Below, one piece after another: positions 17,299-58,691 of a DNA stretch of 64,000 nt. The stretch is from a virus. Below the pieces are notes generated by a model. The model saw nothing but the letters and a program-made list of their open reading frames with translations, was not told the DNA's origin and searched no databases. A program made the position numbers and the translations under genes. The stretch is taken from positions 32,001 to 96,000 of IMG/VR virus record IMGVR_UViG_3300037797_000117. One strand, written 5' to 3'. The first letter of the stretch is position 1; every line of letters starts with the position of its first letter.

Positions 17299-17328
17299 TT
17301 GTACCGTACCCGGGGTACCGAGTATTGT
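17299..17328. promoter_or_regulatory. Regulon promoter/operator copy 1 (divergent)
   Basis: + strand TTGTAC-cgtacccggggtaccgag-TATTGT; overlapping - strand TGGACA-N17-TACGGT. Confidence 0.75.
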
Positions 17329-17398
17329 CCAGAATCGAAGTAGGTTGCCGACCCGGGGAGCTGGACCCCGGCCGGTGGCCCCATGAGATGGAGCACCG

Positions 17399-17776
17399 AT
17401 GCGTCGCCACCTTGTTCTCGTACGCCCGGAACCCATGCCGCGGTGCACCGCCGCCGACCCGTCCGCAACCTGCACCTGCAAAGGGCTGCTGGCCTACGTC
17501 GGTGGGGAATGGGTCCACGTCGACGTCTGCCTCGACTGCCTGACCGGGCCGGGCGGGCGGTGCCAGGGCCGGCATTCGCCGGTCGACCCGGACGGCGGGC
17601 CCTGCGACGACCCGCAACCGGCCGTGTGCGTCCACGAAGAGGACTGGCAGTGCCGCAACCCGGCCGAGATCCACGTCAAATGCGCCTACGCGCTCCCGGA
17701 TCAGACCTGCTGCGGCTGCTGCTGGGCAGACGAGTACCCGCTGGTCGACGACCGCGACCTGGTCGGGGCCGGGTGA
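17399..17776 (+). CDS. Cys-rich hypothetical protein
   Basis: RBS GGAG; many Cys residues. Confidence 0.6.
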   Translation: MRRHLVLVRPEPMPRCTAADPSATCTCKGLLAYVGGEWVHVDVCLDCLTGPGGRCQGRHSPVDPDGGPCDDPQPAVCVHEEDWQCRNPAEIHVKCAYALPDQTCCGCCWADEYPLVDDRDLVGAG

Positions 17777-18336
17777 AGCGGTCGCCGATGACCCGGTCGC
17801 AGACCCCGATGTCCCGAAGCCCGATGACGCGGACCCGGATGAAGCGGCGGCCGGCGGACAACCACCTGACCGGCGACGAGTGGGATGTCCAGGGCCAGAT
17901 GTTGCTGGTCCGCACCGGTGGCCTGTGTGAAGGGCGCACCCCGGCGTGTATCGCGCCGGACGGCCTGGTGCTGGGGATGCCCCGGGAGCAGGTGGAGATC
18001 CAGCACCGGCGGGCGCAGGGCATGGGCGGTACGGCCCTGGTCGAGGCGAACAACCTGGCGAACCTGTTGCTGTTGTGCGCGCGGTGTCACCGGTGGGTGG
18101 AGTCGCGGCCGTCGCCGCCGGATGACGGGGCGGATCTGGCCCGGCGGCGGGGTCTGTGGGTCGGGCATGACTACCGGGACGGGGTGCCGGTGCCGGTTGA
18201 GGAGTATCCGCTGGTGTTGGCGTCGGGGCGGATGGTGTTGCTGGATCCGGTGGTGCCGGAGTATCGGCGGCATCCGTCGGAGTGGTCCGGAGAATGGTCA
18301 CAGCTTGTGCCGTACCCCGGGTACGGCTACAGTTAG
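17773..18336 (+). CDS. HNH endonuclease
   Basis: GLCE...C...QHRRAQGMGG...NLANLLLLCARCHRWVE. Confidence 0.85.
   Translation: MKRSPMTRSQTPMSRSPMTRTRMKRRPADNHLTGDEWDVQGQMLLVRTGGLCEGRTPACIAPDGLVLGMPREQVEIQHRRAQGMGGTALVEANNLANLLLLCARCHRWVESRPSPPDDGADLARRRGLWVGHDYRDGVPVPVEEYPLVLASGRMVLLDPVVPEYRRHPSEWSGEWSQLVPYPGYGYS
18305..18333 (+). promoter_or_regulatory. Regulon promoter/operator copy 2 (perfect palindrome)
   Basis: TTGTGC-cgtaccccgggtacggc-TACAGT. Confidence 0.85.
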
Positions 18337-18368
18337 GTTGTTGGTAGAGGACAACGGAAGGCAACCCC

Positions 18369-19442
18369 ATGACCACAGCGACCGTGACACCCCTGGTCTC
18401 CGGCACGACCGACGCGCACGGCACTACGAGCACCGTCACCAACGGTGGACTCCTCCGCGACGAGGCCCGCCGCATCCCCGCCTTCATCGCGCTGTCCCGC
18501 CTCGGCGACGGCCGCTACGCCGAGAACGTGGCCGGCATGACCGTCCCGCAGGCCCTGGAAGCCGCCGGCCTCGACTTCACCGTCGCCAAGCACGACGGCC
18601 TGTCCGTGAACGGCTTCAACGACGGCTGTGACCGAGTTGCCGGCCTGACCAAGATGCGCGGCGCCGTCGCCCACTTCACCGACCACCGCCCGCCGACCCT
18701 CCTCGGTGTCGTCGGTGAGGGCTACGAGGTCGTCCAGCCCGCCGAGGCAGCCCAGTTCGGCCAGGCCGTACTCGACGAGGGCGGCGCCACCGTTGTCGCA
18801 GTCGGCGCCTACGGAGACCCGATCGGGTCACGCATGTACATGGCGCTGAAGATGCCCGGCGGCATCACCATCGGCGGCGAGGACCCGCACGACCTGTACC
18901 TCACCATCGGCAACTCGTGGAACCGCTCGACCGGCCTGTGGGCCGTCTGCGCCCCGATCCGCCTGGACTGCACCAACCAATTCGCCGCCACGTTCGGCAA
19001 GCTCTCCGCACGGATCTCGCTGCGCCACACCGCCGGTGTCGCCGCCGAGGTTGCCGAGGTCCGTCGCATGCTGACGATCGCGAACACGTTCACCGACCAC
19101 TTCACCGCGTTCGCCGAGTCGCTACTCACCGAACCGATGGTGGGCAGCGACGTCGACACCTTCGTCGAGAAGCTCATGCCGACCCCGCACGCGGTGAAGA
19201 CCGACCGCGGTGAGCAGAACTGGGCCGGGCGGCGCAACACGATCTCCTACCTGATCCGCGCCGGTGAGCGCAACACCGTCGGCCGGGGCACCCGGTACGC
19301 CGCCTACCAGGGCGTCGCCGAGTGGGCCGACTGGATTAAGGACGCCAAGAGCCCGTTGACCCGCGCCGTGCGCGCGATCGACGGCGGCGAGCACGAACAG
19401 ATCAAGATTCGGGCGGCGGAGCTGCTGTCCGCTGGCCTGTAG
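18369..19442 (+). CDS. DUF932 family protein
   Basis: AGLDFTV, LGVVGEGYEVVQ, YLTIGNSWN, PIRLDCTNQ, LRHT, GTRYAAYQGVAEWAD. Confidence 0.88.
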   Translation: MTTATVTPLVSGTTDAHGTTSTVTNGGLLRDEARRIPAFIALSRLGDGRYAENVAGMTVPQALEAAGLDFTVAKHDGLSVNGFNDGCDRVAGLTKMRGAVAHFTDHRPPTLLGVVGEGYEVVQPAEAAQFGQAVLDEGGATVVAVGAYGDPIGSRMYMALKMPGGITIGGEDPHDLYLTIGNSWNRSTGLWAVCAPIRLDCTNQFAATFGKLSARISLRHTAGVAAEVAEVRRMLTIANTFTDHFTAFAESLLTEPMVGSDVDTFVEKLMPTPHAVKTDRGEQNWAGRRNTISYLIRAGERNTVGRGTRYAAYQGVAEWADWIKDAKSPLTRAVRAIDGGEHEQIKIRAAELLSAGL

Positions 19443-19448
19443 GAACGT

Positions 19449-19487
19449 CAGCCGCCCGGCCCCGTCTCCCCCGGGGCCGGGCGGCTG
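19449..19487 (+). terminator. Terminator hairpin
   Basis: CAGCCGCCCGGCCCC...GGGGCCGGGCGGCTG. Confidence 0.75.
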
Positions 19488-19544
19488 CACAGACGGCACA
19501 CGGTCACACCTTCGCGCCGTTGCCCCGGAATCGAACTACCTCAG

Positions 19545-20006
19545 ATGAGTTGTCCGCCACCACCACCGGGAGTCCCCGTGGATACCGTCACCAGAGTCAA
19601 GATCCCCGTATCCGCGAACGCCCTACCGAAGCGGACCCCGACCCAACTGGTCGAGATGGCCCGCGCCGACCTGGCCCAGTCCGGAACCATCCGCAACAAC
19701 GGCCTGCGCTACGCCACCGCCCACCTCGCCGCGTTGCGGGCCGCGTCCGCGTTGCTCGCCGCCCGGGCCACCCCTACCGAGGACATCGCCGACAGCCCCA
19801 CCAGCGTGTGGGTGATGCTGGTGATGGTCGCCCCGGAACTGGAACAGTGGACCGACACCTTCACGGCGAGCGCCCGGAACCGGGCCACCATCGAAGCCGG
19901 CGGGGTACACACCGTAGACGGGCACCAGGCGGACATTCTGATGATCCAGGCCGGCCGGTTCGTACAGGTCGTCGAAACCATCCTCGGCCTGACCCGCCCG
20001 ATTTAG
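19545..20006 (+). CDS. SAV_6107-like HEPN domain protein
   Basis: RYATAHLAALRAASALLAARA...PTSVWVML..VAPELEQW..F.ASA..RA.IEAG. Confidence 0.8.
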   Translation: MSCPPPPPGVPVDTVTRVKIPVSANALPKRTPTQLVEMARADLAQSGTIRNNGLRYATAHLAALRAASALLAARATPTEDIADSPTSVWVMLVMVAPELEQWTDTFTASARNRATIEAGGVHTVDGHQADILMIQAGRFVQVVETILGLTRPI

Positions 20007-20015
20007 TCCGTGACG

Positions 20016-20054
20016 ACCGCCCCTGCCCAGCCGCAACGGCTGGGCAGGGGCGGT
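20016..20054 (+). terminator. Terminator hairpin
   Basis: ACCGCCCCTGCCCAGCC-gcaac-GGCTGGGCAGGGGCGGT followed by TT. Confidence 0.8.
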
Positions 20055-20087
20055 TTCGCATTTCCCGGAAAAAGCCCCATCACCGTA

Positions 20088-20116
20088 TTGTGTCGTACCC
20101 CGGGTGCGAGTAGCGT
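20088..20116 (+). promoter_or_regulatory. Regulon promoter/operator copy 3
   Basis: TTGTGT-cgtaccccgggtgcgag-TAGCGT. Confidence 0.8.
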
Positions 20117-20173
20117 CACGGGCAGGCAAGGGAGAACTGGACTCCCCCACTACCCCGAGATGAGGCATCCGCC

Positions 20174-20404
20174 ATGGCCACCATCGTCGCCACCGCCGAA
20201 ATCGTGTTCGCCAGCCCCTTGCAGGAAAGCGACCCGCTCACCCCCGACACCGTCGAGGCTGCGGTCACCGCCACCGAGCTACGCCTTGGCCTCGACGGGT
20301 GTATCGCCCAGCTCGCCGGCGAATACGCCCGCCACCCCGACACGGCAGCCGCCCGGATGCGTTTCTCCCTGCGGGCCGCCGCACTCATCTGCAACTGCCA
20401 CTGA
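20174..20404 (+). CDS. Conserved small actinomycete protein
   Basis: FASPLQES...GCIAQLAGEYARHPDTAAARMRF motif. Confidence 0.7.
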   Translation: MATIVATAEIVFASPLQESDPLTPDTVEAAVTATELRLGLDGCIAQLAGEYARHPDTAAARMRFSLRAAALICNCH

Positions 20405-20425
20405 CATTCGCTGGCAGGAAGGGAA

Positions 20426-20743: not shown

Positions 20744-20787
20744 CATTTCCCCCCACCACCCGCCCAGACCAGAACGGACCCCGACCC

Positions 20788-21414: not shown

Positions 21415-21469
21415 CCGTTTTCTGGTGTGGTTGGCCGGGTTGCCGAGGGTTCGGCAGCCCGGCCACTTC

Positions 21470-21499
21470 TTGTTCCGTACCCGGGGTGCGGGGTAGTGT
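21470..21499 (+). promoter_or_regulatory. Regulon promoter/operator copy 4
   Basis: TTGTTC-cgtacccggggtgcgggg-TAGTGT. Confidence 0.8.
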
Positions 21500-21545
21500 T
21501 GGTGGTGGTGGGGAACTGGACCCCGCCACCGGAGATGGAGACACG

Positions 21546-21828: not shown

Positions 21829-21857
21829 TTGTATGGAATCAGGGGTACGGGTACACT
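21829..21857 (+). promoter_or_regulatory. Regulon promoter copy 5 (right half-site)
   Basis: TTGTAT-ggaatcaggggtacggg-TACACT. Confidence 0.7.
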
Positions 21858-27046: not shown

Positions 27047-27075
27047 TTGTATGGTTTCCGGGGTACGGGTAACCT
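27047..27075 (+). promoter_or_regulatory. Regulon promoter copy 6
   Basis: TTGTAT-ggtttccggggtacggg-TAACCT. Confidence 0.75.
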
Positions 27076-33425: not shown

Positions 33426-34142
33426 TTAGGACTGCCTCTGCGCGGAGGCCCGGCCGGCGGCGTACGCCTGGCGGGCGATCTCGCGGTAGGTGTCGGTGCG
33501 GTGGTGACCTTCGCGGGCGTCGTCGAGGGAAACGTCCAGGCCGTCCTCGTCGATGGCGTGCTGGGTGTACGCGTCGAGCAGGGCGGCCGGGATTTCACTG
33601 GCGAGGTCGGGGGTGCTCGGCCTGTACACGTCGATGCGGGCCAGCATGTGGTACTTCAGGTGAAGCGCCGCCCCGGCGACGACACCGGGGGTGCAGCGGC
33701 AACCGCCGCCGTCGCCGCAGGCGTGGATGTTGTACGCGGCACCTTGGACGGCGCTGAAGAACTGTCCATCGACCAGCAGGCTGCCGTCGCGGGCACGGAC
33801 ATCAGCGATACAGAGAGTTTCGAGGACGTCGATCGCGATGCGTAGGTCGACTTCGGCGATCTTCGCGTTGAGCCGGTCGTACAGGTTGTCGATCTCCGAG
33901 ACAATGCCGCGCTCGATCCACCGGTCGTCGCCGAGGGCTGCCTCGTCGGCGACGAGCTTGGCCAGGACTGGGTCGGTGGCGTTGGCGAGGTCCCTGTCGA
34001 CGAAGAGGCGGGTGCGGCCGGGGAAGGACTGGTCGAAGCCTTCGTCGTAGTCAGGGAAGATCAGCATGGTGTACCGGTCGGTGTGGACCTTGTAGGTGCC
34101 GTTGAGGTCGGGGCCGGTCGTGGCGATGAGCGTGGCGGTCAT
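33426..34142 (-). CDS. Hypothetical protein
   Basis: RBS GGGAG; HACGDGGGCRCTPG motif. Confidence 0.65.
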   Translation of the reverse strand: MTATLIATTGPDLNGTYKVHTDRYTMLIFPDYDEGFDQSFPGRTRLFVDRDLANATDPVLAKLVADEAALGDDRWIERGIVSEIDNLYDRLNAKIAEVDLRIAIDVLETLCIADVRARDGSLLVDGQFFSAVQGAAYNIHACGDGGGCRCTPGVVAGAALHLKYHMLARIDVYRPSTPDLASEIPAALLDAYTQHAIDEDGLDVSLDDAREGHHRTDTYREIARQAYAAGRASAQRQS

Positions 34143-34177: not shown

Positions 34178-34207
34178 ATGGTACGCCGTTCCCCGGGTAC
34201 GGAGCAA
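34178..34207 (-). promoter_or_regulatory. Regulon promoter/operator copy 7 (leftward)
   Basis: Reverse strand TTGCTC-cgtacccggggaacggcg-TACCAT. Confidence 0.8.
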
Positions 34208-34240: not shown

Positions 34241-34269
34241 TTGTGCCGTACCCCGGAAAGGGGTACCGT
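34241..34269 (+). promoter_or_regulatory. Regulon promoter/operator copy 8
   Basis: TTGTGC-cgtaccccggaaagggg-TACCGT. Confidence 0.8.
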
Positions 34270-34279
34270 CGAGGGAACA

Positions 34280-34470
34280 GCCAGGATGGTCGGAACCCCC
34301 GAGATCCCGCAAGGCGGACAGGCCGACCCAACACCACCGGATCGGCCTGTCCTGGTCTCCAACAACCCCCCGCGGATCGTCTGCCGCCCGAGCCCGCTAC
34401 CGACAGGCTCGCGCGAAACGCGAAACGACGCGCTCAGGTGAGGAGACGTTTCGACCCCGTCCATCCTGGC
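34280..34470 (+). ncRNA. Candidate multibranch structured RNA or leader
   Basis: Closing stem GCCAGGATGG/CCATCCTGGC plus several internal helices, directly after promoter 8. Confidence 0.55.
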
Positions 34471-34499
34471 CCGACCGCCACTAGACCTGAAGGGTTCCC

Positions 34500-34991
34500 A
34501 TGACTGATGACGTATCCACCCATTCCGGCACCCTCGACCGCGACCGCCTCGTCACCGCGTACCGGGAGCTGCGCCGCATCGTCGACGTAGACCCGCTTAT
34601 CCCGGCGTTCCCTTCCTCCGTCCAGGTGTTCCAGGTCCTCTGCGACACACCCGGCTGGGACGAGCAGACCGCCCGCATGTACAGCATTGCCGCCCGATGC
34701 TGTTACCAGGACGGGGTCGACCCGGTCACCGGCCGGCCGCTGGCCGGGGAGGCAGCTATCCACCCGGTCCGGGTTGCTGAGGCCCGCAACCTGGTGTACT
34801 CGGTGCTTGCCGGCCTGGACCCGGCGGCGGCGTCCGCCGCGGCGGCGCGGGTGGTGAGCCTGCTCGCCGACGCCGGGTGGCGTCCCAGCGAAGTGCCGAC
34901 CGACCCGGCTGCGCACGCGACCGCGGTGGCGCGCGTTGTGAGCATGCTCCGCGGCGAGCCTCCGATCGAGGGGAATCAGCCGGCCCGTTAG
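34500..34991 (+). CDS. Hypothetical protein
   Basis: ORF downstream of the structured leader. Confidence 0.6.
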   Translation: MTDDVSTHSGTLDRDRLVTAYRELRRIVDVDPLIPAFPSSVQVFQVLCDTPGWDEQTARMYSIAARCCYQDGVDPVTGRPLAGEAAIHPVRVAEARNLVYSVLAGLDPAAASAAAARVVSLLADAGWRPSEVPTDPAAHATAVARVVSMLRGEPPIEGNQPAR

Positions 34992-35862: not shown

Positions 35863-35892
35863 TTGCGCCGTTCCCGGGGTACGCGTTACGGT
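35863..35892 (+). promoter_or_regulatory. Regulon promoter/operator copy 9
   Basis: TTGCGC-cgttcccggggtacgcgt-TACGGT, preceded by a terminator hairpin at about 35803-35847. Confidence 0.8.
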
Positions 35893-37675: not shown

Positions 37676-37704
37676 TTGTGTCGAACCCGGGGTACGGATA
37701 GGAT
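37676..37704 (+). promoter_or_regulatory. Regulon promoter/operator copy 10
   Basis: TTGTGT-cgaacccggggtacgga-TAGGAT. Confidence 0.85.
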
Positions 37705-38299: not shown

Positions 38300-38328
38300 T
38301 TGTTCCGTAACGCGGGTACGAGTATGGT
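38300..38328 (+). promoter_or_regulatory. Regulon promoter/operator copy 11
   Basis: TTGTTC-cgtaacgcgggtacgag-TATGGT. Confidence 0.8.
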
Positions 38329-40826: not shown

Positions 40827-40856
40827 TTGCGTCGTACCCCCGAAAGCCCGTACGGT
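40827..40856 (+). promoter_or_regulatory. Regulon promoter copy 12
   Basis: TTGCGT-cgtacccccgaaagcccg-TACGGT. Confidence 0.7.
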
Positions 40857-41607: not shown

Positions 41608-41637
41608 TTGTGCCGTACCCCGGTTTCGATGTACTGT
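41608..41637 (+). promoter_or_regulatory. Regulon promoter copy 13
   Basis: TTGTGC-cgtaccccggtttcgatg-TACTGT. Confidence 0.8.
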
Positions 41638-41695: not shown

Positions 41696-42385
41696 ATGAC
41701 CACCAGCACCGCTACCCAGCAGGACAGCACCGCCGGAAACTTCACCTACTACATCGCCAGGACCATCGTTCTCGGCTTCGCCATCGGCTGTCTCTACTTC
41801 TCCTTCGACCACACCATCCACCTGGCCCACATGCTCGGCGCCACCGGCACCCAGGCCTACACCGCCCCCGCCTTCGTCGACGGCTTCATGTTGCTTGGCC
41901 GCCTCGGCATGAGCGCCAAGTTCGACGCCGCCACCAACAAGATCGGCCGCCGGATGATGGTCGTCGGCGCCCTGATCTCCCTCGCCGCGAACATCGCCGC
42001 CGGCCAGACCCTCGGCGGCCGCATTCTCGGCGCGGCCGTGGTGATCGGCTTCCTCGTGACCGAGTGGTACGCCGGCAAGCTCAAGCCCGCTCCCGCCCCG
42101 GCCCCGACCGTCACCCCCGACGAGCAGGCCGCGATCGACCTGGCCGCCAAGCGTTCCGCCGCCGCCCGCAAGGCCGCCGAAACCCGCAAGGCGAACCAGG
42201 CCGCCAAGCCCACCCGCAAGCCCCGCACCCGCAAGCCCGCCGCCGCCAAGACCCACCCGGTCGCCGCGATCCAGGCCCTGACCCCCCAGCAGATCAACGA
42301 CGCCCCGGTCTCCCCCGCCCCGTGGATGGGCCCGAGCCTGGTCATCGCGAAGACCACCGCTGACATCCGGAACCTGACCAACTAA
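41696..42385 (+). CDS. DUF2637/Spd-like 4-TM plasmid spread protein with Lys/Ala tail
   Basis: SFDH..HLA..LGA...PAFVDG...GALISLAANIAA; basic KAAETRK tail. Confidence 0.7.
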   Translation: MTTSTATQQDSTAGNFTYYIARTIVLGFAIGCLYFSFDHTIHLAHMLGATGTQAYTAPAFVDGFMLLGRLGMSAKFDAATNKIGRRMMVVGALISLAANIAAGQTLGGRILGAAVVIGFLVTEWYAGKLKPAPAPAPTVTPDEQAAIDLAAKRSAAARKAAETRKANQAAKPTRKPRTRKPAAAKTHPVAAIQALTPQQINDAPVSPAPWMGPSLVIAKTTADIRNLTN

Positions 42386-43051: not shown

Positions 43052-43179
43052 CGTCCGTACGTACGGACGGACGTACGGTTCCACCAAAAACAAGGGAGGG
43101 GGGTCTTACGCGAGCCCAGGGCCCCCTCTGAGGGGGGCGTACGTCCGTACGTACGTACGTCCGTACGGACAACCGTACG
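43052..43179. repeat. CGTACG/GTCCGTAC repeat cluster (candidate cis-acting transfer locus)
   Basis: Nine CGTACG in about 125 bp; GTCCGTAC x3 forward and x2 reverse. Confidence 0.7.
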
Positions 43180-43237: not shown

Positions 43238-43549
43238 CTATTCCTGAACTTCGTTGCCGCCGTCCGCATGCCCGTCGACCGGGTCTGTCTGGTCCGCGCG
43301 GCTGCGTTCCTGCCCGGCCAACTGGGCCTCCAGCTCGCGGCGTTTCGCCAGAGCAGCAGAGCGGGGGATCCGCGCCCACCGCTTGTCACCCAGCCGGACG
43401 TGCAGCAGTTCTGGCGGGTCGCTGCCGATCATCGCGATGACCTGCCGGCGGGTGGTGCCGTAGCCGATGACCGCCGCCGCCTCCCCTGTAGTCAGCATTT
43501 CGCCTTCCCACGCGGGATGGTCCTGGTCGGGTACCGGCGTATCCGTCAT
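43238..43549 (-). CDS. Excisionase-like HTH regulator, divergent from the transfer operon
   Basis: MLTTGEAAAVIG...RQVIAMI...WARIPRSA. Confidence 0.7.
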   Translation of the reverse strand: MTDTPVPDQDHPAWEGEMLTTGEAAAVIGYGTTRRQVIAMIGSDPPELLHVRLGDKRWARIPRSAALAKRRELEAQLAGQERSRADQTDPVDGHADGGNEVQE

Positions 43550-43724: not shown

Positions 43725-45368
43725 ATGGAGCGGAACACCGAACACGGAGCGCCGAAGAGTGCCGAATCGGCCCCCGGCGGTACCGCAGTACCCGCGGTAC
43801 CGGTGACCCCCGGTACCGCGGTACCGGTACCGCCCGCGGCCCGGCCGGTACCGGCACACCGCGCCCCGGTACCGACGACCGACACCGGCGGTACCAGTAC
43901 CGACAGCGGTACCGGTACCGCCGGCCGGTACCGCTGGTACCACCGGCTCGGCCGCCGGTACCGCCACACCGGTACCGGTACTGCCACCGCCGGTACCAGC
44001 CTCGCGGTACCGGCCGACGGGGCAGTACAGGTCTTCGGTACCGGTACCGGCGACCTGGTACCGGCCGCCGGGTACCGGTACAACCCGGTCGGTACCGAAG
44101 CAACGATCCGGGCCCACCTGCGCGACCTGCCGGTGCCGGCGGCCGGTACCGCCCGTCGGCACCGCAAGGCGGCGACCGGCACCACCACCGAGCCGGTGAC
44201 CTTCCTCGGCCGGATCTTCAAAGCGATCAGCACCATCTTCGAGATCGCCCCCCTGGCCGCGCCCCTGTTCGCCTCCGGCTGGTTCACCTACCTCGTCGTC
44301 ACCGACGAGTACGGCCTGAGCCAGCCGTGGCCGATCGCGGTGACCATGGTGCTCGGCCTCGAAGGTGTCGTCTGGACCCTCGCCAAGCTGTACGAGCAGC
44401 GGCTGGTCGCCGGCCACTCCACCATCGCCGACCGGCTCGGAATCCTGTTCGTCGTCAGCGCCATCGGCAGCCTCATCTACTGGCACTCCATGGTCGAGGC
44501 CAAGGCCCGCACCGCCGAGGCCAGGGCCGCCGCCGTGCTGGCCGGCATCGACCCGGACTTCGTCGTCGCCGCCAAGGCCGACTGGCGCGGTGCCGCCGTC
44601 GCCGCGTCCATGAGCGCGCTCGGCGTGTTCGTGTACGGGCGTAGGGCCAGGTGGAACCGCCGTGTCGAGCTGGAAGCCGAAGGCCGCGTCGACATGCAGG
44701 CCCTGCGGATCGGTCTCTGGCAGTGGATCGTCTCCCCCTGGGAGTCGACCTGGTCGTTCCGCCACGGCATGAAGTACCGGATCAAGCGCCCCACGGACGC
44801 GGTACGGGACTGGCGGCTGTGGAAGGAGATGGGCAAGCCCAAGCTGTGGCCGCCGGCCATGACCGCCGGTACCACCGGCACCAGCACCGACGAGACGGTA
44901 CCGGTACCGGCGTGGATGCTCGCCGAGCTACTCGGCAACGCCGCCGGTACCGGTACCGGCGGGGACCTGGTCGGTACCGGGTACCCGGTACCGACCTCGC
45001 CCGGCCCGGCCGGTACCGGTACCGGCGGTACGAGCTACGTACCGGTACCGCCGGCGAGCGTTGGCGGTACCGCGACCCGTACCGCCTCCGGCCCGGCCGG
45101 TACCGGAGCGCGCGGTCCCGGCGGTACCGGTACCGGTACCGCCGGGGACTCGGTGACGATCAGCCAGTACCGGCAGCGCAACGCCCACCGTCTCGACAAG
45201 ATCCGTAAGGTGCTCGACGGTACCGACGGCCGGCCGGATTGGCGGCTCGCCCCGGAAGCCGACCTGACCCTGTCCGTCATCACGGCCGCCGGCGGGTTCA
45301 GCAACCGCACCGACGCCGCCCAGTGCAAGTCGGTCCTCCTGGCCGACCGGCAGCGGGAAGGCGGATAA
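43725..45368 (+). CDS. Spd-like 4-TM membrane protein with GGTACC-encoded low-complexity arms and possible C-terminal HTH
   Basis: Central TM helices; GT/VP/RY repeats on both sides; first gene of the transfer operon. Confidence 0.7.
   Translation: MERNTEHGAPKSAESAPGGTAVPAVPVTPGTAVPVPPAARPVPAHRAPVPTTDTGGTSTDSGTGTAGRYRWYHRLGRRYRHTGTGTATAGTSLAVPADGAVQVFGTGTGDLVPAAGYRYNPVGTEATIRAHLRDLPVPAAGTARRHRKAATGTTTEPVTFLGRIFKAISTIFEIAPLAAPLFASGWFTYLVVTDEYGLSQPWPIAVTMVLGLEGVVWTLAKLYEQRLVAGHSTIADRLGILFVVSAIGSLIYWHSMVEAKARTAEARAAAVLAGIDPDFVVAAKADWRGAAVAASMSALGVFVYGRRARWNRRVELEAEGRVDMQALRIGLWQWIVSPWESTWSFRHGMKYRIKRPTDAVRDWRLWKEMGKPKLWPPAMTAGTTGTSTDETVPVPAWMLAELLGNAAGTGTGGDLVGTGYPVPTSPGPAGTGTGGTSYVPVPPASVGGTATRTASGPAGTGARGPGGTGTGTAGDSVTISQYRQRNAHRLDKIRKVLDGTDGRPDWRLAPEADLTLSVITAAGGFSNRTDAAQCKSVLLADRQREGG
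43779..44150. repeat. GGTACC array 1 (about 22 copies)
   Basis: Hand count of the palindromic hexamer. Confidence 0.9.
44868..45224. repeat. GGTACC array 2 (about 17 copies)
   Basis: Hand count of the palindromic hexamer. Confidence 0.9.
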
Positions 45369-48016: not shown

Positions 48017-50233
48017 ATGCCGATGCAGTACAACGCCACCATGTCCGGCGGCACGGCATGGGGGGCGGTCAACGGGTTCCTTACCGCCTTCGCCGTGGCC
48101 CTGCTCGGGTCCAACTGGAATCGCCTCGACCGCAACTGGGGGTGGTGGCACGACCGGTTCGGCCCGTTCCCGATCTGGTTCCCGATGGCTGTCGCCGCCG
48201 CCGCCGCGGTCGCGGCGGTCCTGGTCGGCAACCACCGCGGCACCACCGCTTCCAACATCCGCTTCCGCGCCGGGTGCTGGCTCGGCGCGGGCGTGTGGAC
48301 CACAGTCACCATCCACTACGGCTGGTCCGTGATCGGGTTCGTCATCCTTACCGTCGCCGCGGTTCTTGCGGGAACCCTCGCCCCCGCGTTCGGAACCTTC
48401 ACTCCGCCTCCGCAGCCGTCCATGGACAGCGGAAGCGAGATCACCAGACTCACCCGTTTGATCAACAAGTTTGCCAACATCAAGCCCGAAGACCAGCCGA
48501 CCTTGCAGAAGGTCCGCGACTGGGAACCGAAGGACGCCGGCGTCACCTACAAGGCAGTCGGCGCTCCCGGCACCGACTTCAGTTGGCGCACGCTGCGGGA
48601 GATCCAGATCAGGTTGGCGGCCGGGCTCGGCCTGCCGGAAGGGTGCCCGGTCCAGTCAGAGCCGGCCGGCACCACCCAGAACGAAGCCCTTGTGATGGTT
48701 TCCACCCGGAACTACCTGGCCGAAGACGTCTGGTACCCGATGGACATGACGCCGCTAACCGTCACGGAAGACTTCCCCGTCGGCCGGTTCCTTGACTCGG
48801 CACCGACCGACGTCGAGTTGCGCCAGGCCGCCGGTGTCGTGGTAGGCCAGCGCGGCGGCGGTAAGACCATGCTGCTTCACAACATCACCGCCAGCTTGAT
48901 TCGCATGCCGGACGTCGTGGTGTGGCACATCGACCTCAACGGTGGTGGCCTGTCCGCGCCGTGGACCATGCCGGTAGCGATGGGCGAGGTGCAGTACCCC
49001 GGCGTCGACTGGGTCGCGTCAACGCCCGAAGAGGCGCTGATCATGGCTGAGGTGGCGCTGGCGATCGCGAAGGACCGCAAGCGACGCTACGCCGGCGAGC
49101 TGGTACGCAGCGACGACGACGTGCTCCCCGTCCGACCCGGCCTACCGAAGATCCTCATCATTGTCGACGAGAGTGCCGAGGTCACCGGCGAAGACGCCAA
49201 GAAGAAGGCCCAGGCGGTGTCGGCGGCGTTGCAGGAGGTGCAGCGGATCGGCCGCGCCATGTGCGTCGACGTCTTCTTCTCCGTCCTGCGTGGCACCGGC
49301 GATCTGCTGCCGGCCGGAATCAAGAAGCAGGCCGTCCTGTCGTTCTGCACCCGGGTGCGCGACGAGTCGGAACTGGCGTTCGTGTTCGACTGGAAGTCGG
49401 GCCTGGACCACGAGGCGCTCAAGGAGCCCGGCCAGATGTACATGCAGCGCGGCTCCGGCGCGGTCAAGATGTTCAAGGGGTTCCGATTGAAGCCCAGCAT
49501 GATGATCGCCATCGTGCATGCCATGCAGCATGTCCGGGCCCAGGCCCAACTCGACGGCCCCGCGTTGCGGGTCGCCGGTGACGCCTACCTCCAGCGGTGG
49601 CAGCGACCCGACGCAGTTGCCTACCTGGCGGGGCTCCGCGGCGAAGACGGCCCCGACCCCGGCGACGGTGGGGGCGGCGGCTACGGCGGCCCACCCGACC
49701 CGGACCCGGACCCGTATTCGTCCGGTGGCGACCCCGGGGACGACGCGCTCGCCGAGTTCGACGCCGCCATCCGCGAGATCGAGGCGGGGGAGAAGCCGGA
49801 ATCGACCCGGCCGGCGGCACCGGTGCGGGAGGCAGCACCGGCAGCACCGGCCGGGTCGATTCCCGACGACGTGGTCCAGCGGATGCTGAACCAGATCGAG
49901 GCGCTCCCCACGACGGAGGCGCCGCTGGTAGACCCGGCCCCGGCGGCGACGACGCTGGCCGGCCCGGGCCTGCCGGGCGGCCCGGATCAGGCGTCGACCC
50001 GTGGCCCCGTCCCCCGGCGGGCGTTCATCGAGCAGCTACTCGAGCGGGCCGGTCGGGACGGGATGCGGACGGGGGACATTGTGCGGCTTGTGATGGCGTC
50101 GGGGCTGAAGGTTCGGCGCGAGGCCACGATCAAGGAGGACCTACAGGCTCTCCTTGACGCGGGGGTCATCACGCGGAACAACCCGGACGGCGGCGAGACG
50201 CACGGCATGTACTGGCTGAGCCGGCTGGTCTGA
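48017..50233 (+). CDS. traB: TraB-like FtsK/SpoIIIE conjugative DNA translocase
   Basis: N-terminal TM helices; Walker A GQRGGGKT; VWHIDLNGG; Walker B ILIIVDESAE; R.GRA motif; C-terminal wHTH. Confidence 0.85.
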   Translation: MPMQYNATMSGGTAWGAVNGFLTAFAVALLGSNWNRLDRNWGWWHDRFGPFPIWFPMAVAAAAAVAAVLVGNHRGTTASNIRFRAGCWLGAGVWTTVTIHYGWSVIGFVILTVAAVLAGTLAPAFGTFTPPPQPSMDSGSEITRLTRLINKFANIKPEDQPTLQKVRDWEPKDAGVTYKAVGAPGTDFSWRTLREIQIRLAAGLGLPEGCPVQSEPAGTTQNEALVMVSTRNYLAEDVWYPMDMTPLTVTEDFPVGRFLDSAPTDVELRQAAGVVVGQRGGGKTMLLHNITASLIRMPDVVVWHIDLNGGGLSAPWTMPVAMGEVQYPGVDWVASTPEEALIMAEVALAIAKDRKRRYAGELVRSDDDVLPVRPGLPKILIIVDESAEVTGEDAKKKAQAVSAALQEVQRIGRAMCVDVFFSVLRGTGDLLPAGIKKQAVLSFCTRVRDESELAFVFDWKSGLDHEALKEPGQMYMQRGSGAVKMFKGFRLKPSMMIAIVHAMQHVRAQAQLDGPALRVAGDAYLQRWQRPDAVAYLAGLRGEDGPDPGDGGGGGYGGPPDPDPDPYSSGGDPGDDALAEFDAAIREIEAGEKPESTRPAAPVREAAPAAPAGSIPDDVVQRMLNQIEALPTTEAPLVDPAPAATTLAGPGLPGGPDQASTRGPVPRRAFIEQLLERAGRDGMRTGDIVRLVMASGLKVRREATIKEDLQALLDAGVITRNNPDGGETHGMYWLSRLV

Positions 50234-50672: not shown

Positions 50673-50701
50673 TTGTGTCGTACCCCGGCTTCGGGTAACA
50701 T
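50673..50701 (+). promoter_or_regulatory. Regulon promoter copy 14
   Basis: TTGTGT-cgtaccccggcttcggg-TAACAT. Confidence 0.8.
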
Positions 50702-50796
50702 CAACTTCTCCGAGTGGCGAGAACTGGACTCCCACCCCGGACCGAGATGGAGCACCACATGCTCACCGCCCCTACCCCCTCCTGCCCGGAGTGGCG

Positions 50797-52161
50797 ATGA
50801 CCACCACCGTCACCCGCCCCGTCGACGCCGACCGCTCGCCGCCCAACGACCTCAACGCCGAAATGGCCGTCCTCGGCGCCATGCTGATCTCCAAAGACGC
50901 CATCGCGGACATCGTCGAGATCCTTCAGGGCAGCGACTTCTACCGCCCCCACCACACCGCGATCTTCGACGCCGCCATCGGCCTCTACAACGACGGCGAC
51001 CCGGTCGACGCCATCTCCGTCACCGACGCCCTCACCACCTCCAACCCCGCCGCGTTCACCCGCATGGGCGGTGCCAGCTACCTCCACGACTGCATGCACG
51101 CCGCCCCCACCGCCGCCAACGGCGGCTACTACGCCGGCATCGTCAAAGAGCACTCCATCGAACGGCGCCTCATCGAAGCCGGCACCAAGGTCGTCCAGTA
51201 CGGCTACGGCACCGCCGGCACCGGCCTCGACGTCACCGAACGCCTCGACATGGCCCAACGAGCCGTGTACGACGTCGCCAACACCGACGCCACTGACGGG
51301 TTTACCGCCCTCGACGACCTCCTCCAACCAACCCTCGACGAAATTGAGGAATGCGGTGCCCAGGGCGACGGCATGCGCGGCGTCCCCACCGGGTTCACCG
51401 ACCTTGACCGGCTCCTCAACGGGCTCGCCCCCGGCCAACTCATCGTCGTCGCCGGCCGGCCCGGTCTCGGAAAGTCGACAGCAGGGCTGGACTTCTGCCG
51501 CTCGGCGTCGATCCGGCACGGCCAGGCCAGCGCCATCTTCTCCTTGGAGATGAGCAAGGTCGAGGTGGTGACACGGCTCCTGTCCGCTGAGGCCCGGGTT
51601 CCGCTGCAAGTGCTCCGGTCGGGGCGGCTGAACGACGACGACTGGACGAAGCTGGCCCGCCGCATGGGCGAGATCAGCGGGGCGCCACTGTTCGTCGACG
51701 ACACGCCGAACATGTCCCTCATGGAGATCCGGGCCAAGGCCCGCCGGCTCAGGCAGCGTCACGACCTGAAACTCATCGTGGTCGACTACCTGCAACTCAT
51801 GACCGTGCCGAGGCGGGGAGATTTCAACCGCCAGAACGAGGTGGCCGAACTGTCGCGGGGGCTGAAGCTACTCGCGAAGGAGGTCGAGTGCCCGGTGGTC
51901 GCGGTCAGCCAGTTGAACCGCGGCCCGGAACAGCGTACCGACAAACGCCCCCTCCTGTCCGATTTGAGAGATTCGGGCGCAATCGAGCAAGATGCGGATG
52001 TTGTCATACTTTTGCACCGCGACGACTACCACGACAAGGAATCCGTCCGGGCAGGCGAGGCCGACTTCATCGTGGCCAAGCACCGAAACGGACCGACCGA
52101 CACCATCACCGTCGCGGCGCAGCTTCACCTGTCCCGGTTCGTTGACATGGCCATCGTCTAG
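50797..52161 (+). CDS. dnaB: Replicative DNA helicase
   Basis: PPNDLNAEMAVLGAML, GVPTGFTDLD, AGRPGLGKS, VVDYLQLM, SQLNRGPEQR, LSDLRDSGAIEQDAD, AKHRNGPT. Confidence 0.97.
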   Translation: MTTTVTRPVDADRSPPNDLNAEMAVLGAMLISKDAIADIVEILQGSDFYRPHHTAIFDAAIGLYNDGDPVDAISVTDALTTSNPAAFTRMGGASYLHDCMHAAPTAANGGYYAGIVKEHSIERRLIEAGTKVVQYGYGTAGTGLDVTERLDMAQRAVYDVANTDATDGFTALDDLLQPTLDEIEECGAQGDGMRGVPTGFTDLDRLLNGLAPGQLIVVAGRPGLGKSTAGLDFCRSASIRHGQASAIFSLEMSKVEVVTRLLSAEARVPLQVLRSGRLNDDDWTKLARRMGEISGAPLFVDDTPNMSLMEIRAKARRLRQRHDLKLIVVDYLQLMTVPRRGDFNRQNEVAELSRGLKLLAKEVECPVVAVSQLNRGPEQRTDKRPLLSDLRDSGAIEQDADVVILLHRDDYHDKESVRAGEADFIVAKHRNGPTDTITVAAQLHLSRFVDMAIV

Positions 52162-52533: not shown

Positions 52534-52562
52534 TTGTGCCGTACCCCCGAATCGGCTAACGT
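52534..52562 (+). promoter_or_regulatory. Regulon promoter copy 15
   Basis: TTGTGC-cgtacccccgaatcggc-TAACGT. Confidence 0.8.
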
Positions 52563-53826: not shown

Positions 53827-54366
53827 ATGGCCGGAGATACCACGATCACGATCATCGGCAACCTGACCGACGATCCGGAGCTGCGGTTCACGCCGTCCGG
53901 TGCGGCCGTGGCCAAGTTCCGCGTCGCCTCGACGCCGCGGTTCATGGACCGGCAGACCAACGAGTGGAAAGACGGCGAACCGCTTTTCCTGGCCTGCACC
54001 GTGTGGCGGCAGGCGGCCGAGAACGTCGCCGAGTCGCTGCAACGCGGCGCCCGGGTGATCGTCTCCGGCCGGCTCAAGCAGCGCAGCTACGAAACCCGCG
54101 AGGGCGAGAAGCGCACCGTCATGGAGTTGGAGGTCGACGAGGTCGGCCCCTCGCTCCGCTACGCCACCGCCAAGGTGCAGAAGATGCAGCGCACCAACGG
54201 GGGGACCGGTGGCGGGTTCGGCGCGTCGGGTTCCACACCGGCAGGCAACGGCGGGGGAGCGGCCGCCGGCGGCGGCGGCTACGCCGACGATCCGTGGGCC
54301 AGCGGATCCCCCGCCACAGCGGGCGGGGCAAAGGCGGGCGACTTCAACGACGAGCCGCCCTTCTAA
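53827..54366 (+). CDS. ssb: Single-stranded DNA-binding protein
   Basis: [29 protein letters not shown]...DDPWA...DEPPF. Confidence 0.97.
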
Positions 54367-54654: not shown

Positions 54655-54739
54655 CGCACGATCCGAGAAGGCGTCGGCCGGTGGTGAAGTTTCACCGGCC
54701 GACGCCCGTATCCAAGACCAGAAACAGGGAGGCGCAGAG

Positions 54740-55300: not shown

Positions 55301-55896
55301 CCGCCGTCCCGGCCGAGCTACGCCCGTACCGTGTCGTCGACCGGTACCAGCGTGGGTGGCTGACTGCGGTGGATCCGTGCACGACCTACCCGCCGATCGG
55401 TGGTAGCCGGGTGTGGACGTTGGCCGCGTTGGAGGAATGCCGGGCGCCGCTACGCCCGGTCGTGGCCGCGCCCACTACCGACCGGGACGCCCTGGTGGCC
55501 ATCCTGGCCGAGGCGGGCCGCGACGCGGTGTCCACGGTGGCGGCGGCCCTGTACCGGGTGGCCCGCGCTTGTTACACCGCGGACGGGCACGACGCGCGGA
55601 TGGTGGCCGGGCGGCCCGGGTCGTGGGAAAGCATGCTGCTGCCCCGGGTGGCGTGGGAGATCGGTATCGACATTGCCGGGCGCCGGGTTCACCCGCGGGC
55701 GTTGGCGGTGTGTGAGCGGACCATCCATTCGTGGGTGTTCACCGCAGAGTGGTATGTCGAGGTTGCCGAGAACCTGGCGTCGGTGCTGGGGGAGGTGGTC
55801 ACGGTGCGGGGTGGCTATCCGAAGGTGTGTGATCAGTGGATTCGTCAGCATGCCCTGGCTGACCGGGTGGAGGCGTGGGTGACGTCGACGGTGTGA
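55297..55896 (+). CDS. Hypothetical protein
   Basis: Coupled; AGRPGSWES motif. Confidence 0.6.
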   Translation: MTAVPAELRPYRVVDRYQRGWLTAVDPCTTYPPIGGSRVWTLAALEECRAPLRPVVAAPTTDRDALVAILAEAGRDAVSTVAAALYRVARACYTADGHDARMVAGRPGSWESMLLPRVAWEIGIDIAGRRVHPRALAVCERTIHSWVFTAEWYVEVAENLASVLGEVVTVRGGYPKVCDQWIRQHALADRVEAWVTSTV

Positions 55897-55927
55897 CACC
55901 TGGCATGCCACACCGCACCGGCCGGTC

Positions 55928-55956
55928 TTGCCCCGTACCCAGGGTACGGATACTCT
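55928..55956 (+). promoter_or_regulatory. Regulon promoter/operator copy 16 (perfect palindrome)
   Basis: TTGCCC-cgtacccagggtacgga-TACTCT. Confidence 0.85.
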
Positions 55957-56021
55957 GGGTGTTTGTAGTTGCCGAACCCGTTTCCCCACGGACCCATTCC
56001 ATACCCATCGAAGGACCGCCC

Positions 56022-58043
56022 ATGGCCAGCAAAACCGGCTACGTCAACTCCGGACAGTTCTGCACCATCGGAGATGTCGGCGTCACCCGCGCCGGTACCC
56101 GCCTGGAATGTATCGCCGTCGACGGTAAACGTGCCCGCATGCGTATGCCCGCCGGCGAAACCGCCAAGTCGAAAATCCGCAAGCGGGAACGCCGCACCCC
56201 TGCCGACCGGGCCGCCGACGCCCTACGCCCCTCCGAGGTCGGCCACCTGCGCCGCCTCGCCGGCCTGCCCTCCGACCAGGCGAAGATGCGCCGCAAATCC
56301 CAACTCGACAAGCTCCGCACCGCCGGGTTCGTCGACGACCAGGGCGACCTGACCGACGCCGGCCGCGACGCGTTGCGCCGCTGCGGCCAACTCGACGACA
56401 CAACCCCGAAGATCGACCGCTCCGACAACGCCGTCACCGACTGGTCGACCTTCAGCGTGTGCCCGACCTGCGGTGCCGACCTGACCGAGCCGTGCCACGA
56501 CCTGCGCGACCGGGGCAGCCTCAACGCCACCCCGCACGCCGGACGGCCCCACCAGGCCAGCGACACGCTAGCCGAGATCGACCAGCGGGTGGCGGGCAAG
56601 AAGGCCGCGGAAGAGTACCGGCTGGAAAATCACCCGGCCGCGTACGACCTGCGCAACCACCCGGACCGGTTCGTCGGCAAGACCGTTACCGTTACCTCCC
56701 CCAGCTACGGCGGGACGCCGGGAACGACCTACACCGGGGAGCTGGAGTCGGCGCCGTACACCCCGGGAATGTCGCACGTCGTGGTCCGGATCAAAGGCGT
56801 CGACGGCACGGTCCGGTTGGACCCCTCGGCCCCCGTCACCGTCCACGACCGGTCCGCCCAGGCCGGTACCGACTGGTCCCGGTTCGGTATCTGCCCGGCC
56901 TGCACCGCCGCCACCGGCCAGCCGTGCCACGACCTGGGTTCCCCCGGCTCGCTGAACGCGACACCGCACGACGGCCGACCCGCCATCCTGAACCGCGACA
57001 ACGAAGCCGCGGCCGATGTCCGTGCCCGGGACATCGCGGCCGACAAGAAGCTGTCCGACGTCCTGACCCAGGCCGACGAGGACGGCGACCTGACCAACCA
57101 CGACCTGGACAACGCATGCTCGCTGGGCCTGTGGCACACCGGCCCGTGCGTACCGAAGGACGGGCCGGCCCCGCCCGCCGACGACGAGGCCAAGTTCCAG
57201 GCAACCCGCAGCCGGCAGGCCGATATCGACGCCGGCCGGGCCGCGGCCAAGACCGCGGCCGAGGTCGACGAGCTCCGCGCCGAAGGCCACGACGACGTCG
57301 CCCGGCAGCGGCTCACCGACCGGATCGGCCACGACCACCCCAACTGGACTCCTGACCAGGTGAAGAACGAAACCGACCGGATCATGAACGACCCGTGGGC
57401 CGACGCCGCCCAGCACCACACCACCCCGATCGGCGCGGCCGGCGGCACCGAACCCTACGACCCGGCCCGGCACACCGCCATCGGTGACGCCCCCACCGCC
57501 GGCACGCCGGTCACCGTCGTGCGGCCGGGTGCCCAGTGGGGGAGCGGCGACGACACCACCCCGATCGAGAAGGCCCACGTCGCCGACACCGGCCGGCCGG
57601 TACCGGCCCGGCTCGACCCGTCGCTGCCGGTCGAGGACCGTATCCGCGCTGCCTACGACGATCTGAAGAACCGCAAGGACAGCTACGTTCCCGTCGCGGA
57701 CCTGCGGGCGGCCCTGCCCGATGTGCCGAATGACCAGTTCGACGCCACGCTGCGCCGGATGAGTCGCGCCGACGGGGACGCCTACACCGTGCCGGAGTCC
57801 AACCAGAAGGCACTCACCGAGCACCGGCGGGCTGGGGCGCTGTGGATGGGGAATCAGGACAGGCACATCGTTTCCTTCCCGGGTCGTGACTCCGAACCGA
57901 CCGGGGCGTTGGTACAGAGCCCGGGCCAGTGGGATGTCCTGCCTGCCGATGTGGCCGAGCGGGTCCGTGAGTTGTACGGCGATCAGGCGATGCCCAGCCG
58001 TGCGGCGGATACCGGCTCAGCGATGCCGCAGGCCGGTCTGTAA
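56022..58043 (+). CDS. Large multidomain protein with two Zn-finger repeats
   Basis: TDWS.F..CP.C.A....PCHDL...GSLNATPH.GRP twice; wHTH-like segments. Confidence 0.7.
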   Translation: MASKTGYVNSGQFCTIGDVGVTRAGTRLECIAVDGKRARMRMPAGETAKSKIRKRERRTPADRAADALRPSEVGHLRRLAGLPSDQAKMRRKSQLDKLRTAGFVDDQGDLTDAGRDALRRCGQLDDTTPKIDRSDNAVTDWSTFSVCPTCGADLTEPCHDLRDRGSLNATPHAGRPHQASDTLAEIDQRVAGKKAAEEYRLENHPAAYDLRNHPDRFVGKTVTVTSPSYGGTPGTTYTGELESAPYTPGMSHVVVRIKGVDGTVRLDPSAPVTVHDRSAQAGTDWSRFGICPACTAATGQPCHDLGSPGSLNATPHDGRPAILNRDNEAAADVRARDIAADKKLSDVLTQADEDGDLTNHDLDNACSLGLWHTGPCVPKDGPAPPADDEAKFQATRSRQADIDAGRAAAKTAAEVDELRAEGHDDVARQRLTDRIGHDHPNWTPDQVKNETDRIMNDPWADAAQHHTTPIGAAGGTEPYDPARHTAIGDAPTAGTPVTVVRPGAQWGSGDDTTPIEKAHVADTGRPVPARLDPSLPVEDRIRAAYDDLKNRKDSYVPVADLRAALPDVPNDQFDATLRRMSRADGDAYTVPESNQKALTEHRRAGALWMGNQDRHIVSFPGRDSEPTGALVQSPGQWDVLPADVAERVRELYGDQAMPSRAADTGSAMPQAGL

Positions 58044-58147
58044 CCCCCTTCGGTAGACGAACCGATCCCTGACCCGGGCCGCCCCCAGACAGATTGGAGG
58101 TGGCCGGGCCGGGGCCAGCCCCGAACTTCCCAAGGAAAGGATCACCC

Positions 58148-58660
58148 GTGACCGACGTCGAGGCGGCAGTGGCCACGTTCCACCGGTTTCTGGGGCAGCC
58201 CGGACCTGACCGGCCCAGCCTGGAGCAGCACGCGGCCCGCCGCGACCTACGGATCGCCCTCCTCGAAGGGGAGACGGCCGAACTGGTGGCCGCGATCCGG
58301 GCGGGTGACCTGACAGCGATCGCGCACGAGCTCGCCGACCTGGCCATCGCCGTCTACGGAACGGCCCACACGTACGGGCTGCCCCTGAACGAGGTGGTGG
58401 CCGTGGTCCACAGGTCGAACATGACCCGGACCCCGACCGCTTCCGGCAAGGCCGTGAAAGGTGTCGGATACGTGTACCCGGACGTAGGGAAGGTTCTCGA
58501 CGCGGCGGCCGCGCGTCCGGATCAGCGGCCGGCGTTCCGGTTCCCGACCGGCCGGCCCGAGTGGCTGGGGACGTTCCAGGAGTGGCCGTGTGGGAGCTGC
58601 GGGAAGGAGGCGGATGACTCGACGAAGCATTTCTGCCGGCCGACCACCACCCGCCTCTAA
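58148..58660 (+). CDS. MazG-like nucleotide pyrophosphohydrolase
   Basis: LRIALLEGETAEL...AIAHELADL...YGTA...VHRSNMTR. Confidence 0.85.
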   Translation: MTDVEAAVATFHRFLGQPGPDRPSLEQHAARRDLRIALLEGETAELVAAIRAGDLTAIAHELADLAIAVYGTAHTYGLPLNEVVAVVHRSNMTRTPTASGKAVKGVGYVYPDVGKVLDAAAARPDQRPAFRFPTGRPEWLGTFQEWPCGSCGKEADDSTKHFCRPTTTRL

Positions 58661-58662
58661 CA

Positions 58663-58691
58663 TTGTGCCGTACCCCTGAATCGGGTACCGT
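58663..58691 (+). promoter_or_regulatory. Regulon promoter copy 17
   Basis: TTGTGC-cgtacccctgaatcggg-TACCGT. Confidence 0.8.

Follow-up and report, generated by a model that had tools for sequence, protein, structure and literature searches.

A repeated promoter with a probable palindromic spacer operator and the putative regulon of a large temperate actinophage

Does one regulator switch the dispersed operons of a large phage genome, and through which sites would it act? The question is raised by a 64,000-nucleotide (nt) stretch of viral DNA (hereafter the window; 69% G+C) corresponding to bases 32001-96000 of the complete 166,387-bp IMG/VR record IMGVR_UViG_3300037797_000117, which has terminal repeats. 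Along this stretch a promoter-like motif recurs ahead of genes, and the original prediction had listed 17 copies of it between 17299 and 58691, each with an operator palindrome in its spacer, as the promoters of a single regulon. Coordinates given without a label are those of the window, those labelled "genome" refer to the whole record. The element belongs to the large temperate actinophages and has transfer genes of plasmid type, as deduced from the presence of a tyrosine-integrase candidate (genome 110426-111721), a TraB/FtsK-type translocase gene (48017-50233), a DUF2637 SpdB-like gene (41696-42385) and a long tRNA array. No close relative was retrieved by megablast from phage and plasmid collections, and no deposited phage has a portal protein more than 38% identical to the one encoded here.

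Anatomy and statistics of the motif

A weight matrix built from the sites and run over the whole genome retrieved 24 strong copies, spanning genome 12.5-138 kb. The 17 copies originally listed all carry the motif in register, and seven further ones were found at genome 12574(-), 97685, 100617 (weak), 118329, 127313, 137172(-) and 137870. The motif can be written as TTGYnn-N17/18-TAnnnT, with a spacer that holds CGTACCC-N-GGGTACG, or one half of it, and a dyad centre on base 14 counted from the TTG. The -35 TTG(T/C) occupies bases 1-4, with TTG present in 23 of the 24 sites, the left half CGTACCC bases 7-13 and the right half GGGTACG bases 15-21, whereas the T, A and final T of the -10 TAnnnT are found in every site; the spacer measures 17 nt in 14 sites and 18 nt in the other ten. 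That the spacer palindrome is matched either fully or in one half proved correct for the enlarged set as well, one half with at most one mismatch being present in 24/24 sites. Both halves are at this level in nine sites, the left half only in nine and the right half only in six. The 15-mer is perfect at 18311-18325 and 55934-55948, the two places where an exact palindrome had been reported. The 17 listed copies are the following:

17299..17328, plus strand: full palindrome (0+1 mismatches), spacer of 18 nt; first early operon
18305..18333, plus strand: perfect palindrome, spacer of 17 nt; drives the DUF932 gene (18369-19442)
20088..20116, plus strand: full palindrome (0+1); after a hairpin with a 19-bp stem
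21470..21499, plus strand: full palindrome (0+1), spacer of 18 nt; after a hairpin
21829..21857, plus strand: right half only
27047..27075, plus strand: right half only; the orthologous promoter of relative L025 (2275) is of the same type
34178..34207, minus strand: full palindrome (0+1); drives a gene of 238 amino acids (aa) at 33426-34142; back to back with 34241
34241..34269, plus strand: left half only; the gene at 34500 follows after a long leader
35863..35892, plus strand: full palindrome (1+0), spacer of 18 nt; after a strong hairpin
37676..37704, plus strand: full palindrome (1+0)
38300..38328, plus strand: right half exact, left half with 2 mismatches; after a strong hairpin
40827..40856, plus strand: left half only, the weakest in the window, spacer of 18 nt
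41608..41637, plus strand: left half only; heads the spread/transfer module (SpdB-like and TraB/FtsK-like genes)
50673..50701, plus strand: left half only; drives the DnaB helicase gene (50797-52161)
52534..52562, plus strand: left half only; operon includes the single-stranded DNA-binding protein (SSB) gene (53827-54366)
55928..55956, plus strand: perfect palindrome; drives a 673-aa zinc-finger/winged helix-turn-helix protein (56022-58043)
58663..58691, plus strand: left half only; the open reading frame (ORF) 58734-59168 starts 71 nt from the TTG

Promoter frames of the type TTGY-N17/18-TAnnnT number 21 on the plus and 4 on the minus strand of the genome, against an expectation of 2.85 +/- 1.8 per strand in 60 dinucleotide shuffles, that is about 7-fold above chance. 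An exact operator half in register is found in 22 of these 25 frames and in none of any shuffle. Allowing up to 3 mismatches, the 15-mer occurs 24 times in the window versus 9.1 +/- 2.9 in shuffles; with no more than 2 mismatches, 12 of its 14 matches genome-wide fall inside frames and the other two are at chance level, beyond which the operator does not occur outside frames.

The halves that depart from the palindrome do not vary at random. All 24 sites have G8 and G16, while C12 is present in 23/24 and C20 in 22/24, and these four positions are mirror-symmetric about base 14 (skeleton G8..C12-N3-G16..C20), being retained even where only one half is recognisable. The changes are confined to the inner triplets of one half, where GTA/TAC gives way to A/T-rich bases (G-WWW-C; for example GGAATCG, GGTTTCG, CGAAACG). 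The centre base tracks the intact half, with a C after a left half and a G before a right half, which points to the 9-mer GGGGTACGG as the recognised unit.

Apart from the motif, GTAC and GGTACC are in excess genome-wide, the latter about 3-fold (138 copies versus 46 expected). Two local clusters at genome 74-78 kb explain part of this excess, 41 GGTACC copies lying within a 4-kb stretch there (43725-45368); the remainder is attributed to a putative NNG-TAC codon usage, without link to the operator.

Promoter context and gene content of the regulon

All 24 copies are intergenic or placed at the extreme 3' end of a gene, and each is oriented toward the downstream gene, as had been described for the first 17. 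In most cases a ribosome-binding site (RBS) and the start codon of an ORF rich in G+C at third codon positions follow 55-125 nt past the TTG, the exceptions being a leaderless case (+36), the copies at 34241 (+259) and genome 137870 (+166), and the one at the tRNA array. The copy at genome 127313 has the ATG of a 230-aa gene 7 nt past its -10 box, a leaderless-mRNA geometry that gives independent support to the -10 assignment. Hexamers and spacing are indeed those of a sigma-70/HrdB-type promoter (TTGnnn, TAnnnT, 16-19 nt), and the reading of the copies as promoters of this type, with a symmetric operator in the spacer and belonging to one regulon, is well supported by the sequence comparison. 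No other sigma-70-like promoter was detected in the 17-57 kb region with an E. coli-tuned scanner, which is unsuited to 69% G+C and misses the motif copies too; the copies must therefore be what the host polymerase reads first on infection. A T7-type polymerase was not found in the genome, in a search whose control was uninformative, and Rfam gave no match in the window.

Copies had also been said to follow a terminator often, and this did not hold up. A clean long GC-rich hairpin lies upstream of only about 6 of the 24 (20088, 21470, 35863, 38300 and 65685 in window numbering, and genome 12574(-)), and the folding energy upstream of copies is no different from that at random genome positions (p = 0.10). 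In the relatives described below, a hairpin precedes the promoter of the DUF932 gene.

The driven genes encode, besides the DUF932 protein, a SAV_6107-type HEPN protein, an HNH endonuclease, DUF5131 and DUF4326 proteins and two DUF6919 proteins, as well as the DnaB helicase, SSB, a MazG-like pyrophosphohydrolase and the 673-aa zinc-finger protein. The copy at genome 118329 stands ahead of the tRNA array. Tail and lysis genes and the tra operon had been described as devoid of copies. For the virion and lysis genes this stands, save for the copy at genome 12574(-), which is placed on the side of the structural genes, as promoter of an FtsK-like gene; for the transfer genes it does not, the copy at 41608 heading the spd/tra module. 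Copies are also absent from the right arm and from the region of the integrase (genome 105-112 kb). Replication, conjugative spread/transfer and tRNA genes would then stand under the same switch as the early genes, and the motif offers a ready-made transcription map, with about 24 operons and their predicted starts, of a 166-kb phage-plasmid that has no cultured close relative.

Some further features were observed around these promoters. The copy at genome 127306-127349 (L013 11306-11349) starts 7 nt past the 3' end of the array's last tRNA-Thr, and the copy at genome 137870 is also located downstream of a tRNA-like T-arm. A hairpin with the constant loop A(A/G)CTGGA occurs in the leaders of four motif promoters (17353-17371, 20129-20147, 21508-21526 and 50716-50734) and also at 14462-14480; its stems change in a compensatory manner (GGGAG/CTCCC, GGGG/CCCC, CCGGGG/CCCCGG), and it is followed by GAGATGGAG as RBS and then by the ATG. 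In the distant relative L017, whose 81-kb record (G001) has only few genes in common with this phage and gave no help in tracing a regulator, GGGGAGCTGGACCCC is found in the leader of the DUF932 gene. The leader hairpin may represent a layer of translational control inside the regulon. The long leader of the 34241 copy (34270-34499; 259 nt from TTG to ATG) has a counterpart of 248 nt at the orthologous L025 promoter (7220-7438), and this conservation suggests a small ORF or an RNA element, with no match in Rfam. About 10 nt past the predicted start of two copies, at 17341-17352 and 55965-55976, the elements GTAGTTGCCGA / GTAGGTTGCCGA have a core, GTTGCCGA(C), that equals the core of the phiC31 conserved early element GGGTTGCCGACTCCC; with two instances, this is maybe due to chance.

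Two regions devoid of operators deserve description. Within the transfer module, dense GTCCGTAC / CGTACG units form two patches at 43052-43179, between a terminator and the 3' end of an 86-aa helix-turn-helix (HTH) gene. They have CCGTAC in common with the operator half, yet they are not operators, and the cluster could be a clt-like target of TraB. Beyond the window, genome 105091-111721 contains the integrase candidate, a block of leftward genes and two divergent genes, MarR-like (82-aa) and HTH_3 (141-aa), separated by the inverted repeat CGGGTC-N18-GACCCG. No copy of the regulon motif is present in this region, which is likely the lysogeny module.

Operator divergence in relatives and the candidate regulator

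Relatives were found by means of the DUF932 protein. One of them, L025, comes from a 94-kb metagenome contig and has a DUF932 protein that is 70% identical; it carries 9 copies of the motif in 21 kb, and 7 of them precede orthologues of genes that are copy-driven here, the proteins being only 40-70% identical. Four of these 7 orthologous pairs agree in site type (left or right). L024 and L026 retain the motif upstream of DUF932. In L027 (59%) the palindrome reads CGTACCG-N-CGGTACG in 3-4 copies, the innermost base of both halves having changed together, whereas L029 (50%) keeps TTGCnT...GTAnnGT and has, in five copies, TCTCAGTC-N-GACTGAGA on the same base-14 centre. Other palindromes stand in the same place at a sigma-70-like promoter in L031 (GGTACAT-N4-ATGTACC) and L047 (TGTAGCTACA), and the more distant L033 has yet another one, with a consensus promoter TTGACT-N17-TATAGT ahead of the DUF932 gene. 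A polymerase frame that stays constant around a symmetric insert, the insert being specific to each lineage and changing in concert in all copies of a genome, is the hallmark of an operator co-evolving with a trans-acting dimer, and immunity specificities diverge in this manner. The exact motif gave one chance hit in IMG/VR (L009).

In L047, a contig of a Pseudonocardiaceae metagenome-assembled genome (MAG), four TGTAGCTACA palindromes bracket the DUF932 gene (7956-8009, 9184-9218), and two of them flank and overlap a TTGCGT-N17-TACTCT promoter. Over more than 350 nt downstream of one L029 copy (8313-8700) no convincing ORF is present, the only call being a low-complexity minus-strand frame; this copy may drive a non-coding RNA.

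The shared 30-mers had further been proposed as recombination points for cassette exchange. The comparison with L025, which has little power at this divergence, lent no support to this proposal: 29 of 32 gene junctions are breakpoints, in the proportion of 8/9 for those with the motif and 21/23 for those without (p = 1). L025 has a single-gene cassette (1637-2257) flanked by two copies, and most insertions and deletions lie inside operons.

The divergence among relatives bears first on the possibility that the whole 30-mer is an element read by the polymerase itself, carrying a phage or an alternative (SigB/SigF-like, GGGTAC-reading) sigma factor, with no separate operator. The sequence GGGTAC resembles the -10 of SigB/SigF-type promoters, and the bases before the -10 box are G-rich in about 75% of our sites. 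Nonetheless, the right-half GGGTAC has no partner at SigB/F spacing, the invariant T-A-N3-T is the housekeeping -10 signature, and the genome encodes no Sigma70_r2 domain, matches to Sigma70_r4_2 being not significant. In addition, the TTG/TAnnnT frame persists in relatives whose spacer has been exchanged for unrelated palindromes, and contact with a sigma factor would forbid such an exchange. This explanation is, in our view, hardly credible.

Our preferred reading, to which we give moderate confidence, is that the copies are sigma-70-type promoters read by the host, whose spacer would be the operator of a phage-encoded symmetric, most likely dimeric, protein. The host housekeeping (sigma-70/HrdB-type) RNA polymerase would read the 24 copies, and a dimer bound on base 14, about 23 nt upstream of the predicted start, would sit between the polymerase contacts and shut the promoter. 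Repression appears the likeliest action because a dyad at this distance, in a spacer of optimal length, occupies DNA that the polymerase must hold. One protein would in this way hold down, or jointly release, the early cassettes along with the genes for replication (those of DnaB, SSB and the zinc-finger protein), spread/transfer and tRNAs; the degraded inner triplets of one half would probably grade its affinity, and it is plausible that this graded degeneracy tunes the response. With a palindrome that is lineage-specific in a frame and dyad position that are fixed, operator and regulator would co-evolve as an immunity specificity.

Some observations weigh against this arrangement, and each of them is better discussed together with the alternative it favours. 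The preference for repression over activation comes from position and spacer length only, and the -35 hexamer agrees with the consensus in the TTG only. A poor -35 is usual for activator-dependent promoters, such as those with T4 MotA boxes or Mu Mor/C sites, and a half-site beside the -35 or -10 could contact the polymerase; the palindrome might then bind an early phage activator and the copies would be middle-class promoters. A protein centred in a 17/18-nt spacer, however, normally excludes the polymerase. To our knowledge the only spacer-bound activators are of the MerR type, which need spacers of 19-20 nt, and those found here measure 17 or 18 nt. The MotA box replaces the -35, whereas here 23/24 sites retain the TTG, with a box centre at about -23 instead of -30. 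The E. coli-tuned scanner detected no other early-region promoter candidate from which the activator would be made first. We consider activation unlikely.

All nine copies in the 21 kb of L025 are half-sites, so that a monomer reading the 9-mer is conceivable. According to this alternative a monomer, in the manner of L5 gp71, would bind the asymmetric GGGGTACGG as its unit, and the full palindrome would consist of two units; in agreement with it, only one exact half is found in 15 of the 24 sites of this phage, and the centre base goes with the intact half. Sites with the left half only and sites with the right half only are, however, exact mirror images about the base-14 axis, a placement that argues for a symmetric dimer at a fixed position rather than for a monomer on a free-standing 9-mer. 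The degenerate halves retain the symmetric G...C skeleton, L027 changed both halves symmetrically, and no stand-alone copies exist outside promoters. A monomeric reader is thus held to be distinctly unlikely. A dimeric trans-acting regulator is the best reading, because the dyad centre is fixed, the half sites keep a symmetric skeleton, the change in L027 is symmetric and the L029 palindrome lies on the same centre.

The last points against the proposed phage repressor concern its source. No operator copy is found in the own control region of any recognisable HTH or GntR gene, and the real host may be outside the genomes that were sampled. The palindrome could then be the site of a host regulator by which the phage senses the state of its host, the differing palindromes of the relatives mirroring different hosts; that no phage regulator is tied to the site goes in the same direction. 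Against it, in 401 Actinomycetes genomes the motif at up to 1 mismatch gave 11 single hits versus 5 for the reversed control, with at most 2 per genome, while this phage alone has 9 copies at that threshold; in these genomes the motif is at background and is not a host regulon. The L047 palindrome is confined to the element's own contig in a 6.1-Mb MAG, and the close relatives L025, L027 and L029, whose hosts are probably similar, differ in palindrome. A host factor is accordingly very unlikely.

The original prediction had envisaged one dimeric regulator for all early cassettes. The dimer fits the sites best and the regulon extends over early, replication, transfer and tRNA operons; none of the HTH or GntR genes could be tied to the operator. 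The candidates considered that have no operator copy upstream are HTH_3 genes (61711-62232; genome 106098-106523), GntR genes (genome 132070-132369 and 141256-141495), the MarR-like gene and the 86-aa HTH gene (43238-43498). For the 238-aa gene at the divergent site neither Pfam nor PHROG gave a hit; it encodes an acidic product and lies within a regulated operon in L025, and was dropped as lead candidate. Two features on the minus strand at the first copy retained our attention:

17303..17331, minus strand: candidate leftward promoter TGGACA-N17-TACGGT, read from the sequence, whose -10 overlaps the palindrome at 17305-17319 and which would drive P0061/P0062
16611..17248, minus strand: small leftward genes P0061 (16937-17248) and P0062 (16611-16937, C-terminal part HTH-like), weak regulator candidates

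This minus-strand frame points into P0061/P0062 at the late/early border, the classic position of a repressor. P0062 has a weak TetR_N match (E = 0.0065), with sub-threshold leads to HTH_23 and sigma-region-4-like proteins. An exhaustive HMMER search among 1.8 billion representatives retrieved four remote homologues; none was found by word-index search or in IMG/VR, and the sequences of solved structures gave no match. The predicted model (pLDDT, predicted local distance difference test, of 81) includes a C-terminal three-helix region, and its fold hits, all with E > 1, are mostly three-helix HTH domains. P0062 is therefore put forward only as a tentative candidate, the chances being against it.

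The series of relatives, from a symmetric one-base change to a wholly different palindrome, represents a natural experiment on the evolution of immunity specificity, and could supply orthogonal promoter/repressor parts for use in high-GC actinobacteria. In a broader and speculative extension, for which we see some chance but not an even one, the spacer palindrome would be a swappable specificity module: a clade of large actinobacterial phage-plasmids would keep the chassis TTGCGT-N17/18-TAC-N-GT (dyad on base 14) and exchange operator/regulator pairs, the regulator coming from a family without a Pfam model (e.g., that of P0062) and the conserved weak halves setting the order of derepression.

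Comparison with known systems

Dispersed-operator regulons are known from P1, L5 and phiC31, and what is described here is not a new kind of regulation. Like them, it has many dispersed copies of one site, 24 in this genome, and the site differs among lineages (this phage with L025, then L027, L029, L031 and L047). The nearest concept is the C1 regulon of P1, also a phage-plasmid, in which the C1 repressor binds about 22 dispersed operators that control separate lytic, replication and accessory operons (PMC8546580). The P1 operators are asymmetric 17-mers (ATTGCTCTAATAAATTT) variably placed relative to promoters (PMC8546580), whereas the site described here is symmetric and has a fixed position within one repeated promoter.

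Mycobacteriophage stoperators and the phiC31 early promoters had been named as analogues, and the likeness holds at the conceptual level. L5 and other Cluster A phages, as well as Streptomyces phage R4, have 18-30 repressor sites in one orientation to transcription, with motif and repressor co-evolving (PMC4557955, PMC6550527, PMC10276819). Stoperators, however, are asymmetric, monomer-bound and located within transcribed regions, where they block elongation (PMC4557955, PMC6550527), and only one overlaps the early promoter; in this phage all copies are embedded in promoters, free-standing ones are absent and the skeleton has dyad symmetry. The phiC31 genome, read directly, has 15 copies of the CIR palindrome CCTACTCACGTGAGTAGG across the late and early regions and, upstream of early genes, a separate repeated element, GGGTTGCCGACTCCCTTAC, which is not sigma-70-like. 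A repeated perfect palindrome, a repeated early element and a related host group are common to both phages, but operator and sigma-70-like promoter are fused here, whereas in phiC31 operator and early element are separate, and neither the c repressor nor gp12 of phiC31 had a homologue in this phage by tblastn (E <= 1).

Plasmid kil-kor regulons, exemplified by pSVH1 TraR and by IncP KorA/KorB, are alike in that a plasmid-borne repressor holds down transfer and spread genes. IncP KorA and KorB act on repeated palindromes present in many promoters. TraR, whose sites in pSVH1 contain GGTAC (PMC4447253), is confined to one promoter region, which has direct repeats, unlike the regulator proposed here, and the two GntR genes of this phage are far from the regulon. 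The motif itself is a real, well-defined and conserved regulon signal, and would be read by a possibly novel regulator.

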